This document shows positions 20,795 through 26,767 of a stretch of DNA of 26,767 bases, in pieces. Made by a program: the position numbers and the translations under genes. Numbering within the stretch: position 1 is the first letter of the stretch; the number at the start of each line of letters is the position of its first letter. Origin of the DNA: an uncultured Clostridia bacterium (GTDB taxonomy: Bacteria; Bacillota; Clostridia; Christensenellales; Borkfalkiaceae); the NCBI GenBank assembly GCA_947632165.1, contig CANROI010000001.1:1-26767 (forward strand). The letters run 5' to 3'. The notes under the pieces are model-generated. The model had not been told where the DNA came from and did not search any database. It worked only from the letters and a program-made list of their open reading frames with translations.

Positions 20795-22102
20795 TTATTC
20801 CTCTACGATCCCATTGAGATCGTACGTCTCCGCGCTGTAGATCTTCACGGAAACGATCTCTCCGGGCGCAACTTTCCGCTTCGGTGAGACGAAAGAGACG
20901 TTGCCGTCGATCTCGGGCGCCTGAAAGTACGCCCTGCCGACATAGCCGATCTTGTCGTACCCGTCCGCGAGCACGGGCAGCGTCTTTCCGACCCACGCCG
21001 CCGTCTTTGCGGCGGAAACTTCCGCCTGCGCCTCATAGAGCTCCCGCACCCAGCGCTTCCGCGTGGAGGGATGCACCTGCCCCTTCAGTTTGTAGGCGGG
21101 CGTCCCGGGTTCGCGGGAGTAGGCGAAGAAACCGCAGTTTTCGAACTTCATCTCCCTCAAAAAGGAGAGCATCGCCCGATGTTCCTCCTCCGTTTCGGTG
21201 GGAAAACCGGCGATGAACGTCGTGCGGATCGCGATCCCGGGGATCTCGCGGCGCAGCTTCCGGATGAGGGAGACGAGCTCCCCGCGCTTTCCGCGCCGCC
21301 CCATGAGCTTTAAGATGCGGTCCTCGCAATGCTGCATGGGGATATCGAGATACTTTAAGACCTTCGGGTTGGTCTTTATCTCCTCGATGAGTTCGTCCGT
21401 GATGGCTTCCGGATAACAGTATAGCAGACGAATATGACAGATATTGTCAAGTTCGGATAATTTTCGGATGAGCGCTGCAAATTCGTTCTTGCCGCGGTCC
21501 TCGCCGTAGCGGGTCGTGTCCTGTGCGACGAGGATGAGCTCCTGCGTGTCCCCGAGGGCCTTCGCCTCGGCGAGGAGCTCTTCCATGGGGTAAGAAACAT
21601 ATTTGCCCCGGATCATGGGAATGAGGCAATAGGTGCAGTGGTTGAAACAGCCGTCCGCGATCTTGAGATATTTATAGTGCGCGGGGGTGGAGACGAGGCG
21701 CTCCGCGGGAGAGGTGCCCTTCCCCACGGCGTTGACTCGTTCGCCCGCATAGGCCCGTTCGAGCGCGGGAAAGAGCTCGCTCGCATCGCTCACGCCGAGG
21801 AACACATCCCCCTCCGTGAGTTCGGGAAAGAGCTCCGACACATATTTCTGCGGGAGGCAACCCGTCACGACGATCTTTTCGAGCTTTCCCTCGCTGCGGT
21901 AGCGGTTGCATTCGAGGATCCGCTCGATGGATTCCTTGCGCGCTTCGTTGAGAAAGGCGCAGGTGTTGACGATGAGGATCTGTGCCTCGTAGGGGTCCTG
22001 TGTGACGGGACAGCCGCGCTTTTCGATCTCGCCGAGGAGCCGTTCCCCGTCCACGCGGTTCTTGTCGCAGCCGAGGGAGATCATGCCGAACGTCTTTTGC
22101 AT
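20795..22102 (-). CDS. rimO: Ribosomal protein S12 methylthiotransferase
   Basis: Start revised to MQKTFGMISLGCDKNRVD at 22102 (TGATG overlap with ftsK); VNTCAF, radical-SAM CFNHCTYC, QDTT.YG, C-terminal APEIDG/TRAM-like; rimO-pgsA synteny. Confidence 0.92.
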   Translation of the reverse strand: MQKTFGMISLGCDKNRVDGERLLGEIEKRGCPVTQDPYEAQILIVNTCAFLNEARKESIERILECNRYRSEGKLEKIVVTGCLPQKYVSELFPELTEGDVFLGVSDASELFPALERAYAGERVNAVGKGTSPAERLVSTPAHYKYLKIADGCFNHCTYCLIPMIRGKYVSYPMEELLAEAKALGDTQELILVAQDTTRYGEDRGKNEFAALIRKLSELDNICHIRLLYCYPEAITDELIEEIKTNPKVLKYLDIPMQHCEDRILKLMGRRGKRGELVSLIRKLRREIPGIAIRTTFIAGFPTETEEEHRAMLSFLREMKFENCGFFAYSREPGTPAYKLKGQVHPSTRKRWVRELYEAQAEVSAAKTAAWVGKTLPVLADGYDKIGYVGRAYFQAPEIDGNVSFVSPKRKVAPGEIVSVKIYSAETYDLNGIVEE

Positions 22103-25100
22103 CAATCGAGGCTCCCGTATGTATTCTCGTATTCTTCCTTGGTGAGAAGCACCGTGCGCGCTTTGGCCTTGCCGTCGAACGGGGAGACATAGCCCATCGT
22201 CTCCATCCACTCCATGATCTTGCCCGCATGGTTGTAGCCGACCGAGCATTTGCGCTGGATGAGGGAGATGGACGCGGACCCGAGTTTGACGACGATCCCG
22301 AGCGCGCGGATGTATTCGGCACTGAGGCTCTCGCCGCTCTCGCCGTCGTCGTCATAGCCGCCGTCCCCGCTCGCTTCGGTGTGGTTGATATAGTCGGAGA
22401 CGTCGGGATCGAAGTAGGCTTCGTTGTGCGACTTGATGTCTTCGACGATCGCCTGCACCTCTTCGGAGCTGATGAAGGCGCCCTGCACGCGCGAGCAATT
22501 GAACATGCCCTCCGTTTTATAGAGCATATCGCCGAGCCCGAGCAGCTTCTCCGCGCCCGATTCGTCGAGAATGGTGCGGGAGTCGACTTCCTGAATGACG
22601 CGGAACGCGATACGCGTGGGAAGGTTGCCCTTGATGACGCCCGTGATGACGTCGACGGAGGGACGCTGGGTCGCGATGACGAGATGGATGCCCGCCGCGC
22701 GCGCCTTCTGCGCGATGCGCTGGATGCGCTCCTCGATGTCCTTCTTGGCGACGGACATGAGGTCGGCAAGTTCATCCACGACGATGACGATCTTCGGAAG
22801 TTTCTGCTCGTCCTCCGTCAGACTCGAGTTGTATTCGTCGAGGTTCCGCACCACGTTGCCCGAACGCGTCTTCTGTTCGAACAGATCGTATCTGCGCTCC
22901 ATCTCCTTGATCGACCAATTGAGCGCCATGACTGCCTTCTGCGCGTCGGCGACGATCTCGTTGATCATGAGGTGCGGCAGCCCGTCGTAGACCGTGAACT
23001 CGACCTTCTTGGGGTCGATGAGGATGAGCCTCAGATCTTCGGGCGAATATTTGCAGATGAGGCTGATGAGCATCGCGTTGAGGCAGACCGATTTGCCCGA
23101 GCCCGTCGCGCCCGCGACGAGCAGATGCTTCATCTTGGCAATATTCCCGCACACGCTCCTGCCCTCGATGTCTTTGCCGATCGCAAACATGAGCGCATTG
23201 GGGCGGGCGTTGAGGTATTCCTCCGACTGCATGACCGAGCGGAGCCCGACCGTCGCGCGGACGGAGTTGGGCACCTCGATCGAGATCGCGCCCGATTCGT
23301 TGTTGGCATACATATTCACGCCGTCGCGCGCATGCAGGCGCATAGCGATCTCGGCGTCGCGCTTGGTGACCATGCCGACGGAGATGTTCTTCGGGACGTC
23401 GATGTCATAGCGCGTAACGGCCGGCCCGACGGTCACTCTCATGATCTCCGCATCCACGCGGAACCCGGACAGGGTCTCCACGATCGTCTGCGAATTGCGG
23501 TCGACCTCCTCGGGCGAGACGCTGACGTTGTCGTTATATTCGCGGAGCAGGCTCACCATGGGCTGGCGGTAGGGCTTGTACACATGCTTCTTGGGAAGGG
23601 GCGCGGGATCCGAAGGGATGTCGTGCATCACTTCTTCGGGGCGGGACGATCTGCCTTCCCGCTCCCGCGAGACGGGCACGTCCGCTCCGGGCGCCTCGTC
23701 CTCTCCTTCGTCGAAGAGATCCGCATTCGAGCGCAGTCCGTCGATCGCGCGGCTTCCGCCCGCTTCCGTACGCCCTCTGCCGAGGTCGCCGAGCGATTCG
23801 CCGACCTCTCTGCCGAGATCCTCTATCCCACCGAACAGATCGGGCTTTTCGGGCGCTCTGCTCCTGCTCCCCCTGCCTCTTCCGGGCTCGCGGGCGCTCT
23901 CCGCAAGGTCTCTGCCGATGTTTCTGCCGAGGTCCTGCGTGAGCTCTCTGCCGCTGTCCCCTCTCGCGGGCGCCGCGCCGCGCACGGGTTCCGCGGATCC
24001 CGCCGAACGGCTCTCGATGCGCTCGTTTGCCGAGGAGAAGAGGCTCCTGAATTCGCTCTCCGCACCCTCGGTGCGCTTTTCCTCCGTACGCTTTTCCTCC
24101 GTGCCGCGGGCGATCACGGGCTCCTCGCGGGGCTCTGTGCGCGGTTCCGATTTGACGGGCTCCGGCTCGGGCAGAACGGGCGCGCGGTGCAGATCCGCTT
24201 GTCCGCTGCCGCGGGGTGCCTCGGGGATCTCTTCGAAGGAATCGGGCAGATCCTCGGCCGCGGGCTCCTCGAAGGGCACGTCCTTTGCATATTCGTCCGG
24301 CTGCTCCTCTTTGAGCGGGGTCTCGGGGGATTTATAGGAGGGCTTCACGGGATAGTTGAGGTCCTCCGCGCGGAGGGTATAACCGCCGCCGCGCAGATCG
24401 GGCTTCACTTCGGTGACCCTTCGCGGCATTCCGGGACGGGGTTCCTCCGCCTTGCGCTCGTAGCGCTCGGAATAGCTCTGCCGCGGCGCCGCGGGCCGCT
24501 CGAAGGGATCGAACTCGGTGGAACTGCCGTAGCCGCGCCCGTCCTGCGGGCGGACGCTGCTCTTGCGTTCCCGGGTGTTGAAATCGGAATCGCGCCTGAA
24601 GATGAGGTTGCTGTTGAAATCGCGCGCGGGATCGGAGAACAGGATGTCCCTGCCCGAAATGGGACGGGAGGGCTCACTGCGGGGCGGTTCATATCCGCTC
24701 CCGTAGATCACATCCCGGTCCGTTGCGCGAACGGAACGCCCGTCATAGGGCTGCTGCTGCGTAGGTTGATAGCCGTAGGGCTGTTGCTGTGCGGGCTGGT
24801 AGCCGTAAGGTTGTTGTTGCGCAGGTTGGTAGCCGTAGGGCTGCTGCTGCGTGGATTGATAGCCGTAGGGCTGCTGCGAAGGGCGCACTGCAGAACGGTC
24901 TTCCGAGGGCGCCTCGGTGCGGCGCGTGCGGTCTTCGCCGTCGCGTTCCTCACGGGCGGGCTCGCGGCCGTCGTAGCGGTCCGCAACCGCATGCCCCATC
25001 GTACGGCGGCTCGGCGTGAGGTCGTCGAGGTCGAAACCGCCCTCTTCCGCCTTCTCCCGCTTGCCGTGCTTCTTTTCGCGCTTCTCCCGCTTGCCCCCGA

Positions 25101-25650
25101 CGAGGCGGCCGAGCGGGGTCGCCTTGAGGAAGAAGAAGAGCGAGACTGCCGCAAGCAGAGAAAACAGCACATATGCGCCGACTTCGGTGAGCAGCGTGCG
25201 GCAGGGATAGACGATGAGCCCGAAGAGCACGCCGCCGCCCGTCGATTGGGCAACGGAGGCCTCCGCCGCGGTCCAGCAGGCGCTCATGTAGGCGCCGAAA
25301 CTCTCCCCGAAGAGGGAGGCACTCGTCGCGAGATGGGCAATGAGCAGCGCGGAGGCGAGCACACAGGCGGTGCGGCCGATCCACTTCCACGGGATGAGCT
25401 TTTTGCCCGTGATCATCACGAGCGAGGCATAGATGCCGAACACGAGCAGCGGATAGAGCGCAAAGCCGAACGCCCCCAACAAAAAGGCGTTGATCGCCGT
25501 CCCGATCTCGCCGAGCATATATGTACCGATGATGGAAATGACGAGCAGAACCGCGCTGAACAGGAGCAAGGTCATGCCGAAGGTCTCCCTCGTGATGACG
25601 GAGCCCGCACTCTTGCTTCTGTTGTCCTCCCCGCGACCGTAACTGTTCAA
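22102..25650 (-). CDS. ftsK: FtsK/SpoIIIE DNA translocase (about 1182 aa) with long low-complexity linker
   Basis: N-terminal TM segments, GPAVTRY, AGATGSGKS Walker A, LIDPK, IVVDELADLM, ATQRPSVDVITG, gamma domain SISLIQRK...A...MEWME. TTG start at 25650 chosen because GGAGG is 8 nt upstream and the ORF-track start lies inside the promoter. Confidence 0.95.
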   Translation of the reverse strand: MNSYGRGEDNRSKSAGSVITRETFGMTLLLFSAVLLVISIIGTYMLGEIGTAINAFLLGAFGFALYPLLVFGIYASLVMITGKKLIPWKWIGRTACVLASALLIAHLATSASLFGESFGAYMSACWTAAEASVAQSTGGGVLFGLIVYPCRTLLTEVGAYVLFSLLAAVSLFFFLKATPLGRLVGGKREKREKKHGKREKAEEGGFDLDDLTPSRRTMGHAVADRYDGREPAREERDGEDRTRRTEAPSEDRSAVRPSQQPYGYQSTQQQPYGYQPAQQQPYGYQPAQQQPYGYQPTQQQPYDGRSVRATDRDVIYGSGYEPPRSEPSRPISGRDILFSDPARDFNSNLIFRRDSDFNTRERKSSVRPQDGRGYGSSTEFDPFERPAAPRQSYSERYERKAEEPRPGMPRRVTEVKPDLRGGGYTLRAEDLNYPVKPSYKSPETPLKEEQPDEYAKDVPFEEPAAEDLPDSFEEIPEAPRGSGQADLHRAPVLPEPEPVKSEPRTEPREEPVIARGTEEKRTEEKRTEGAESEFRSLFSSANERIESRSAGSAEPVRGAAPARGDSGRELTQDLGRNIGRDLAESAREPGRGRGSRSRAPEKPDLFGGIEDLGREVGESLGDLGRGRTEAGGSRAIDGLRSNADLFDEGEDEAPGADVPVSREREGRSSRPEEVMHDIPSDPAPLPKKHVYKPYRQPMVSLLREYNDNVSVSPEEVDRNSQTIVETLSGFRVDAEIMRVTVGPAVTRYDIDVPKNISVGMVTKRDAEIAMRLHARDGVNMYANNESGAISIEVPNSVRATVGLRSVMQSEEYLNARPNALMFAIGKDIEGRSVCGNIAKMKHLLVAGATGSGKSVCLNAMLISLICKYSPEDLRLILIDPKKVEFTVYDGLPHLMINEIVADAQKAVMALNWSIKEMERRYDLFEQKTRSGNVVRNLDEYNSSLTEDEQKLPKIVIVVDELADLMSVAKKDIEERIQRIAQKARAAGIHLVIATQRPSVDVITGVIKGNLPTRIAFRVIQEVDSRTILDESGAEKLLGLGDMLYKTEGMFNCSRVQGAFISSEEVQAIVEDIKSHNEAYFDPDVSDYINHTEASGDGGYDDDGESGESLSAEYIRALGIVVKLGSASISLIQRKCSVGYNHAGKIMEWMETMGYVSPFDGKAKARTVLLTKEEYENTYGSLD
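24746..24876 (-). repeat. 30-bp tandem repeat (4 units plus a partial) encoding GYQ(P/S)(A/T)QQQPY within ftsK
   Basis: Units start at 24746, 24776, 24806, 24836 and 24866; differences are mainly at synonymous positions. Confidence 0.95.
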
Positions 25651-25702
25651 AATATCTTCCTCCGACCCCCTCCGGGGCTGTGTCTCTAATTTCTCATGAT
25701 AC

Positions 25703-25731
25703 AGTATAACATTTTTGTCGGGATTTTTCAA
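25703..25731 (-). promoter_or_regulatory. Sigma-A promoter for the ftsK-rimO-pgsA-cinA-recA operon
   Basis: TTGAAA-17 nt-TATACT with a TG extended -10. Confidence 0.7.
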
Positions 25732-25821
25732 CAATATAAGAGAGAAAATTTTTTCGAAATGGAAATTTATTTTGCAATCGGACGGGAAAAAGGGCGAAAA
25801 GCAGCGCGCCGCAAAAGAACG

Positions 25822-25857
25822 GGGGCGCCCCGCGGACTTTCGTCCGCGGGGCGCCCC
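25822..25857 (-). terminator. Intrinsic terminator of the spo0A-like gene
   Basis: 16-bp perfect stem with a GAAA loop on the minus strand, followed by CGTTCTTTT. Confidence 0.8.
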
Positions 25858-25897: not shown

Positions 25898-26659
25898 CTA
25901 AACCATATTCTCGAGGATGAGTTTATCCGCAACGAGCGCGATAAATTCGCTGTTGGTGGGCTTTTCGGTGCCGATGTACACCCGCGCGCCGAAGATCGCG
26001 TTCACCGCGTCGATCCTGCCCCTGTTCCATGCGACCTCGATGGCATGGCGGATCGCCCGCTCTACTTTGCTCGCGGTGGTATCGAATTTTTCGCCGATGA
26101 TCGGATACAGCCCCTTCGTCACATTGTTGATGATGTGCGGATTCTCCACCGCCATCTTGATCCCCTCGCGCAAATATCCGTAGCCCTTGATGTGCGGCGG
26201 GATGCCGATCGCGATAAAGATGTTCGAGATCCGCTCGTCGAGCGAGCCCGCACGGCGGCGTTCGAGGCTCTCGCGGACCGTGCCCGTCTCCTCGTCGGCG
26301 ATCTCCGCGATGCGGTCGGCGACGACCGTTGCGGAAATGGGCTTCATGAGATAGTACCGCGCGCCCAGCGCGATGGCGCGGTTGATGATCTTATCGTCGG
26401 AAAAGTTCCCCATCACGATAAATTCCGCCTTCTTTTGCTCCCTGCGCGCCGCCTCCATCACGGTAAACCCGTCTAAATTGCGCAGAAACAGGCTGAGGAC
26501 CACGATCGACGGATTGTTGGTCTTCAGAAGCTCCACGCCCTCCGCGCCGTCGTCCGTCATGCCGCATATGTTGAAATTTTCCCGTTCGGAAAGAATCTTT
26601 TTGAGCTCCTCCGCAAACGTTTTGTTGCTTTCGAGGATCAGGATCTGGATCGGTTTCAT
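25898..26659 (-). CDS. spo0A: Spo0A-family transcription factor with atypical receiver domain
   Basis: C-terminal IGIPPHIKGY.YLRE, VTK.LYP.I...FDTTASKVERAIRHAIEVAW.RG and KPTNSEFIA are Spo0A signatures. The receiver keeps LDG and KP but has E10-S11 and S56. Could be a paralog rather than the main spo0A. Confidence 0.85.
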   Translation of the reverse strand: MKPIQILILESNKTFAEELKKILSERENFNICGMTDDGAEGVELLKTNNPSIVVLSLFLRNLDGFTVMEAARREQKKAEFIVMGNFSDDKIINRAIALGARYYLMKPISATVVADRIAEIADEETGTVRESLERRRAGSLDERISNIFIAIGIPPHIKGYGYLREGIKMAVENPHIINNVTKGLYPIIGEKFDTTASKVERAIRHAIEVAWNRGRIDAVNAIFGARVYIGTEKPTNSEFIALVADKLILENMV

Positions 26660-26692
26660 GGCTGCACCCCTTATGATTTCGATTACAAAACT

Positions 26693-26721
26693 ATTATAAA
26701 TCCTCGTTTTGTAAATGTAAA
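26693..26721 (-). promoter_or_regulatory. Sigma-A-like promoter for the spo0A-like gene
   Basis: TTTACA-17 nt-TATAAT on the minus strand. Confidence 0.65.
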
Positions 26722-26726
26722 GCTAT

Positions 26727-26759
26727 TTTTGTAAAAATTTAATTGGATTTTTTACAAAA
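26727..26759. promoter_or_regulatory. 11-bp inverted repeat just upstream of the -35 (candidate operator)
   Basis: TTTTGTAAAAA-N11-TTTTTACAAAA; a third TTTTGTAAA at 26707-26715 lies in the promoter spacer. Confidence 0.35.
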
Positions 26760-26767
26760 TTCAAAGA

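Follow-up and report, generated by a model that had tools for sequence, protein, structure and literature searches.

The spo0A locus

The DNA analysed here (the window) is a stretch of 26,767 nucleotides, positions 1 to 26,767 of contig CANROI010000001.1 of assembly GCA_947632165.1, from an uncultured Clostridia bacterium of the family Borkfalkiaceae (Christensenellales). Its subject is a spo0A gene lying next to the contig end and encoding a Spo0A whose receiver domain lacks the phospho-acceptor aspartate. The coding sequence, defined by its open reading frame and translation, occupies positions 25898–26659 of the minus strand and specifies 253 amino acids plus a stop codon, and the protein scores 255 bits against NCBIfam TIGR02875 (spore_0_A), for which the cut-off is 200. 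Two domains are recognised on the same strand, the receiver (REC; residues 6–116, positions 26312–26644; Pfam PF00072 Response_reg, 58 bits) and the Spo0A_C DNA-binding and transcription-activation domain (residues 144–247, positions 25919–26230; Pfam PF08769, 132 bits). In phmmer alignments covering 113 residues, the latter shares ~70% identity with 1lq1 and 1fc3, two solved C-domains, and its recognition helix is nearly identical to theirs. The first-pass annotation, made from the letters alone, had called this DNA-binding domain canonical, and in essence it is. An AlphaFold2 model made from 62 aligned rows shows a confidently predicted (beta/alpha)5 receiver (predicted local distance difference test, pLDDT, 85–95), a disordered linker at residues 125–137 and a confident C-domain.

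Receiver columns were set by phmmer alignment to the solved Spo0A receivers 9phz and 1dz3/1qmp, and hmmalign and MAFFT agree with them. In place of the metal-binding acidic pair D10-D11 the protein has E10-S11 (codons at 26627–26632, minus strand, as are all that follow), in place of the phospho-acceptor D56 it has S56, encoded by AGC at 26492–26494, and in place of the switch residues T/S84-A85 it has G84-N85 (26405–26410); K106-P107 (26339–26344) are retained. These are the replacements noticed in the initial reading of the sequence, and the alignments confirm that they fall at the conserved sites. With acceptor, acidic pair and switch residue all altered, the domain is most likely a pseudo-receiver unable to carry out His-Asp phosphotransfer, as far as its residues can tell.

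The window comes from the metagenome-assembled genome (MAG) of a rabbit-gut bacterium (G000; 1.42 Mb, 204 contigs, 86% complete), and the contig ends 108 nucleotides upstream of spo0A. Such fragmentation and the position of the gene might be thought to favour an artefact of sequencing, assembly or alignment, an explanation that we regard as hardly credible. Public rabbit-gut and gut metagenome contigs from three studies cover positions 26355–26767 with 0 differences, although one of the runs may be the source sample, and this identity rules out an error private to the window assembly; the residues are shared by ~100 orthologues, and the three alignment methods agree. No RNA run is among the public runs listed. 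It had been argued at first reading that a sequencing error is unlikely because an aspartate codon needs at least two changes to become AGC. This two-step hurdle is lower than it seems, since the one-step intermediates N (AAY) and G (GGY), as well as a single D (GAT), are found among the orthologues (see below).

Downstream of spo0A lies an intrinsic terminator (25812–25857, minus strand), consisting of a 16-bp GC stem at 25857–25822 followed by a T-rich tail (RNA fold z = -5.1), and then ftsK/spoIIIE (22102–25734, minus strand), identified from its translation with a C-terminal FtsK-type ATPase/gamma region; its start codon is uncertain, and the promoter scan places a promoter-like site of its own at 25731–25703. 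The scan and the RNA fold thus agree with the earlier description of a gene with its own promoter (see below) and terminator directly upstream of spoIIIE/ftsK, and the other descriptive points of that first reading hold as well. In the window FtsK/SpoIIIE, a low-complexity linker of >500 amino acids separates the membrane part from the ATPase, and holds ~4 tandem QQQPYGYQP repeats as well as EEKRT repeats. The window order is found again in the relative L034, which reads ABC-F, spo0A, ftsK, rimO/miaB-like, pgsA, cinA, recA. The genes upstream of spo0A in the relatives encode an ABC-F ATPase and a PopT-like transporter, and the neighbourhood is not that of spoIVB/recN.

A single-copy orthologue

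A single Spo0A_C match was found in the source genome, within the limits of an 86%-complete assembly, and a canonical, Asp-containing Spo0A was found neither there nor in the five relatives checked for one. Searching 24 genomes of the genus with the protein likewise yielded no canonical copy, the full-length Spo0A hits numbering one per genome. The sole second copy in the genus, in G022, is itself aspartate-less. This paralogue (L113, 1096–1845, plus strand; G022:C18) is 41% identical, sits on a long branch and reads E10-S11...S56.

These counts bear on the idea, raised in the first-pass annotation, that the protein is a paralogue which interferes with a canonical Spo0A, either as its dominant-negative partner or as its competitor, occupying its 0A boxes or poisoning its dimers. 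Two spo0A paralogues do occur in some Clostridia and in other families of Christensenellales. Here there is one Spo0A_C match in the source genome and no canonical partner for it among the 24 genomes, and the window protein falls within the Spo0A tree as the orthologue of its family, so that we consider the paralogue explanation very improbable; the second, Asp-containing spo0A that had been proposed as something to look for did not turn up. Judged from these searches and the tree, the window gene is the single-copy orthologous spo0A of a Candidatus Gallimonas species. It is a true Spo0A orthologue by architecture, score, tree placement and target sites (see below), and fails the defining regulatory feature of the family.

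Spread of the altered receiver and selection upon it

Related loci belong to Candidatus Gallimonas (64–85% identity) and Candidatus Borkfalkia (58–62%), both of the Borkfalkiaceae, and derive from chicken, rabbit, mouse and ruminant gut samples. An orthologue was present in 20 of the 24 genus genomes searched, and the residue pattern is common to those 20, to 80 further Gallimonas/Borkfalkia genome loci and to 119 metagenomic proteins. E10 and G84 are invariant, as are D63-G64 and K106 (K106-P107 being found in 99–100% of family orthologues), position 11 is S, G, A or N, and the canonical M59-P60 has become L59-K/R60. Other families of Christensenellales keep the canonical residues. Loss of the aspartate is therefore clade-wide, extending over the ~100 Gallimonas/Borkfalkia orthologues, and not private to one assembly, which had been named at the outset as a way in which the observation might collapse.

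At position 56 most members have Ser; Borkfalkia has Gly, two members have Asn and a single one has Asp. Its codons in ~100 orthologues (AGC 64, AGT 29, GGN 5, AAY 2, GAT 1) form a one-step network leading from GAY through AAY or GGY to AGY, and because the position varies between S, G, N and D by way of such neighbouring codons, the side chain does not appear to be a fixed acceptor. This matters for the possibility that Spo0A is phosphorylated at another site or by another enzyme, for instance on Ser56 by a Hanks-type Ser/Thr kinase, or on E10, D63 or D88/D89. An AGC or AGT codon specifies Ser56 in 93 of ~100 orthologues, so that the residue has been kept across synonymous turnover, and K106, D63-G64 and E10 do not vary at all. 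On the other side, Borkfalkia carries Gly rather than Ser at position 56, two proteins carry Asn there and one carries Asp, the metal-binding D11 and the T/S84 switch are both gone, and D63-G64 is invariant in all Spo0A and is not the acceptor in canonical ones; there is in addition no unpaired histidine kinase in G003, as described in the next section. Weighing these, we regard phosphorylation by another route as unlikely.

The receiver has nevertheless not been released from constraint. Close pairs among 100 orthologues give ratios of nonsynonymous to synonymous substitution rates (dN/dS) of 0.095 for the receiver, 0.17 for the linker and 0.03 for the C-domain, and two orthologues are on average 63.5% identical over the receiver and 90.7% over the C-domain. 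Purifying selection acts on the receiver, and the dN/dS values, together with the confident predicted receiver fold and the conserved alpha4-beta5-alpha5 face, indicate that the gene product is functional. The earlier proposal of a pseudo-receiver Spo0A is accordingly upheld, the acceptor Asp, the acidic pair and the switch residue being gone family-wide from a domain that selection maintains. The alpha4-beta5-alpha5 face (residues 86–119) is the most strongly family-conserved part of the receiver, and such conservation would also accommodate a protein partner or constitutive dimerisation. A structure prediction of a receiver homodimer (residues 1–125, two copies) returned a score of 0.00, which counts neither for nor against dimerisation; indirect hints of a dimer come from that same face and from the tandem 0A boxes at a 10-bp register described below.

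Histidine kinases

A survey aimed at histidine kinases was made in G003, which has the best assembly in the genus (98% complete, 20 contigs). One HisKA kinase is present, and the seven HATPase_c proteins of G003 comprise two kinases, SpoIIAB and four proteins of GyrB/ParE/MutL size. Both histidine kinases adjoin a response regulator, which leaves in G003 no orphan kinase of the kind that feeds Spo0A in clostridia; the orphan kinases that the first-pass annotation had suggested looking for are thus missing from this genome. Apart from the two kinase-regulator pairs and Spo0A, the small genomes G003 and G000 contain about three further response regulators without a nearby kinase, whose matches to the receiver model are truncated and which may be more orphan or pseudo-receivers (G003:C3:18404, C7:35171 and C11:1581; G000:C21:2605 and C27:7881).

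Sporulation genes and 0A boxes at their promoters

The core sporulation genes, whose presence had been put forward as a check, are found across the genus. Among 31 genus genomes, SpoIVA exceeds its equivalog cut-off in 29, including the source genome (G000:C93), a full-length SpoIIE-like protein of ~770 amino acids is present in 30, a SpoIIGA-like protein in 28, and SpoIIAB exceeds its cut-off in 26, with a SigF-type gene next after it. The genes of G003 are arranged spoIIGA, sigE, PopT-like, ABC-F, spo0A, with spoIIGA-sigE 3.6 kb upstream of spo0A and a SigE that scores 361 bits against a cut-off of 339. The source genome has SigG, preceded by a SigE fragment truncated at a contig end, and also a SigF-like factor, a SigH-like factor, SpoIIID and SpoIVA. 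SpoIIE, SpoIIGA and SpoIIAB were not found in this 86%-complete assembly of 204 contigs, and as the sigE gene is itself broken by a contig end, these absences can be put down to fragmentation. From its gene content, the cascade downstream of Spo0A looks intact.

Phosphorylated Spo0A of B. subtilis binds tandem boxes as a dimer, and the promoters that it classically activates in a direct manner are those of spoIIA, spoIIE and spoIIG. Upstream regions of the corresponding genes were compared among the genus relatives, spoIIE, spoIIGA and spoIIAB being unassembled in the source genome. Upstream of spoIIE, 12 of 19 genomes have an exact TTCGACA (the reverse complement of TGTCGAA) at the same fixed position, and three or four more have a one-base variant of it; a half-conserved second box 3 nucleotides beyond the first makes a tandem repeat at a 10-bp register, and a perfect TATAAT follows ~42 nucleotides beyond the boxes, with no -35 element at normal spacing. 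The rest of the 19 spoIIE upstream stretches (~1.5 kb each) contains no further exact box. Most genomes carry TTCGGCA-TAT-TCCGACG ~35 nucleotides before a TATAAT upstream of spoIIGA, and upstream of spoIIAA a conserved TTCGAC lies ~55 nucleotides before the -10 element. The intergenic sequence around the boxes is otherwise poorly conserved. Counted over all three promoters, the TTCGAC motif occurs at spoIIE in 12 of 18 genomes, at spoIIGA in 12 of 28 and at spoIIAA in 16 of 26, against 4.3% of controls (440 upstream regions of the source genome), and the tandem form TTCGNC-N7-GAC occurs at spoIIE in 11 of 18, at spoIIGA in 17 of 28 and at spoIIAA in 0 of 26, against 0.2% of controls (1/440). 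The simplest reading of this distribution is that the window Spo0A would still activate these promoters.

Within the source genome itself, an exact 0A-box scan gave 202 sites where ~130 are expected, 42 of them outside crude gene calls, a result too noisy to use, and the window contains 4 boxes against 4.4 expected. This assembly has no copy of the composite motif in which a box is combined with TATAAT, as expected because spoIIE and spoIIGA are not assembled. Two exact TTCGACA sites in the source genome may be mentioned, both possibly due to chance, one 46 nucleotides before a gene for a 253-amino-acid M23-peptidase-like protein (possibly SpoIIQ-like) and the other 35 nucleotides before spoIIID (G000:C81:875 and C136:1246).

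It could also be that the lineage is asporogenous, that its Spo0A has been repurposed for stationary-phase or metabolic genes or is decaying, and that the sporulation genes are relics. The genomes are small (1.3–2.1 Mb), cultured Christensenellaceae are characterised as not forming spores (PMC11536998), and some Firmicutes that do not sporulate have a Spo0A (Galperin et al., bioRxiv 10.1101/2022.02.25.481979). The 4 genomes out of 24 without a detectable spo0A, and the several sporulation proteins that fall below equivalog cut-offs, would fit as well. However, almost every genus genome has its sporulation genes as intact open frames, the 0A boxes are conserved at precisely the three sporulation promoters that Spo0A classically activates, dN/dS is low, and relics would be expected to lose such order across species that have diverged to 64–85% identity. 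We therefore give the asporogenous explanation a low probability.

The spo0A promoter and an operator-like array

A sigma-A-type promoter, TTTACA-17-TATAAT, precedes spo0A at positions 26693–26721 (minus strand) and agrees with the consensus at 11 of 12 positions; alignment of the family's upstream regions shows this -35/-10 pair to be conserved. No convincing match to a sigma-H-type spo0A promoter was seen by eye. Just upstream of the promoter, at 26728–26758 (no strand assigned), are two degenerate operator-like palindromes with the family consensus TTTTGTACAAAA, matching at 26728 and 26749, and the contig ends inside the array. In relatives (L034–L111) the complete arrangement consists of a TTCGAC box, then three TTTTGTACAAAA palindromes at 21-nucleotide phasing, then the -35/-10 pair. 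Within G003 the exact TTTTGTACAAAA 12-mer occurs only at G003:C10:14544–14555, and it occurs once more in each of G042 and G008. From its sequence, the array looks like a dedicated operator combined with autoregulation, which would fit control by the amount of Spo0A, and its conservation points to transcription as the level at which control may be exerted.

The further occurrences of the palindrome lie in varied surroundings. In G042 the site is situated between thrS and infC, upstream of infC-rpmI (L205, ~1540–1600; G042:C9), and adjoins a tandem TGTCGAA-TTT-TGTCGCT pair. G008 has six TTGTACAA-type palindromes within ~110 nucleotides (L206, ~1506–1620; G008:C6), a second array of the motif, between a phosphodiesterase-like gene and a 56-amino-acid open reading frame and near an LRR gene. 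An exact palindrome site on G000:C76 probably belongs to a terminator. The other exact sites (G042, G008 and G000:C76) yielded no regulator gene whose product might bind the palindrome. CodY was considered as a binder, since the arms of the palindrome resemble the CodY box, and was rejected because none of five genus genomes has a CodY (PF06018).

Comparison with other Spo0A proteins and atypical receivers

A profile of the Spo0A C-domain matched 1184 clusters (50% identity) at E <= 1e-30. A near-complete receiver was present in 58 of the best 150 of these clusters, a sample biased towards the order to which the source of the profile belongs, and within it D56 is lost in 11 of 58 clusters (replaced by S, E, N, G or Q) and at least one of five signature residues deviates in 38 of 58. 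A quick maximum-likelihood tree of 79 Spo0A proteins needs at least 8 changes to account for the loss of D56, at least 3 of which well-supported branches make unavoidable. In the nearest outgroup clusters positions 10-11 read E-S, E-R or E-H and D56 is still present, so that the acidic pair was probably lost first and D56 later. The top of the profile search is occupied by metagenomic proteins of 220–450 amino acids (P0121–P0132 and others) with two to four tandem Spo0A_C domains and no receiver, which may be real multi-domain DNA binders or artefacts of assembly or gene calling.

The canonical Spo0A proteins of B. subtilis, Geobacillus stearothermophilus and Clostridioides difficile share with the window protein the REC plus Spo0A_C architecture, a score above the equivalog cut-off, single copy, the conserved recognition helix, K106-P107 and D63-G64, as well as tandem 0A boxes at spoIIE and spoIIG (10-bp register) and a box at spoIIA. 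Unlike it, they have D10-D11, D56, T/S84 and M59-P60; their genes usually lie downstream of spoIVB/recN, whereas here spo0A is placed between the ABC-F ATPase gene and ftsK, and they are fed by a phosphorelay or orphan kinases, whereas the best genome of the genus has no orphan kinase.

Aspartate-less receivers known from other regulators resemble the present one in being recognised by the profile without having the phosphotransfer residues, in being joined to a DNA-binding output and in being conserved as a domain; the output here differs in being a developmental master regulator whose textbook trigger is phosphorylation. HP1043/HsrA and GlnR are among the atypical response regulators that combine independence of phosphorylation with a DNA-binding output. 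Proteins of the ChxR/HP1043 type are likewise orphans with a degenerate acidic pocket and are thought to be active without phosphorylation, through abundance or partners, but their output is an OmpR/PhoB winged helix rather than Spo0A_C and several are defined by constitutive dimerisation. Laboratory Spo0A variants with receiver deletions, such as sad67, are constitutively active. They are alike in that the Spo0A C-domain activates sporulation genes unphosphorylated once inhibition by the receiver is relieved, and unlike in being engineered or selected mutants, whereas the receiver here has been retained at full length and conserved in nature.

In the literature, ChxR of Chlamydia, a phosphorylation-independent atypical response regulator, is named in a review on aspartate-less receivers, where Spo0A figures only as a laboratory D-to-E mutant (PMC4395418; Maule et al. 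2015), and a 2025 J Bacteriol perspective (PMC12632262) does not mention Spo0A. Comparative studies of sporulation gene sets leave the acceptor residue undiscussed, and in one MAG study the Borkfalkiaceae are listed among potential spore formers. Full-text searches turned up no account of a Spo0A that naturally lacks the aspartate, and nothing relevant on Spo0A in Gallimonas or Borkfalkia. New here are the evidence from the promoter boxes, the kinase count, the network of position-56 codons and the operator array.

A Spo0A without its aspartate as a probable activator of sporulation

Taking the above together, we think it fairly probable, on the residues, boxes and gene content described, that the window protein is an orthologous Spo0A that still activates the early sporulation genes without phosphorylation of an aspartate, and we lean with similar assurance to the view that it would behave like Spo0A on DNA and unlike Spo0A in its switching. 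The unchanged DNA-binding domain would still recognise 0A boxes, so as to activate spoIIA, spoIIE and spoIIG, with binding to tandem pairs at spoIIE and spoIIG, and activity would be set by an input other than Asp phosphorylation. The likeliest inputs would be how much protein is made from a spo0A promoter under special regulation, a partner or ligand that acts on the alpha4-beta5-alpha5 face, or both. A bolder form, to which we would give only tentative credence, is that entry into sporulation in the Borkfalkiaceae is kinase-free, with an always-competent Spo0A gated by its amount through the TTTTGTACAAAA array and a 0A box.

Several observations weigh against activation of sporulation by an unphosphorylated Spo0A. 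K106 and D63 are retained, so that on sequence alone some residual phospho-chemistry is possible, and the maintenance of Ser56 across synonymous change within Gallimonas makes a role for that serine possible. The proteins below their equivalog cut-offs are SpoIIE, SpoIIGA and SigF, and the p-values of the promoter motifs are inflated by relatedness among the genomes. The four genus genomes without a detected Spo0A have spoIVA and spoIIE all the same, and two of them are 95–96% complete. The family has no cultured member, and spore formation has so far not been observed in these organisms. The two more complete of those four genomes, G007 and G009, also have spoIIGA and spoIIAB, with no Spo0A_C found. 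G009 has kept a perfect tandem TCCGACG-AAT-TCCGACG before spoIIGA, from which it appears that its spo0A is probably just unassembled. G007 has no boxes at spoIIE, and before spoIIGA nothing better than a weak TTCGTCA variant.

In textbooks, endospore formation is triggered when Spo0A is phosphorylated at Asp56, and all models of the decision to form a spore rest on this. An entire family of abundant animal-gut Clostridia that has the sporulation machinery and the Spo0A sites together with an Asp-less Spo0A would mean that this decision can be wired differently, and would offer a natural system for asking how a receiver works unphosphorylated. It bears also on the prediction of which gut bacteria sporulate and spread as spores, as annotation pipelines name the protein Spo0A and give no hint that its regulation may differ. 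If entry into sporulation proves to be kinase-free and gated by the amount of Spo0A, then, given several independent losses of D56, phosphorylation-free sporulation switches would be common among uncultured gut Clostridia rather than a curiosity.

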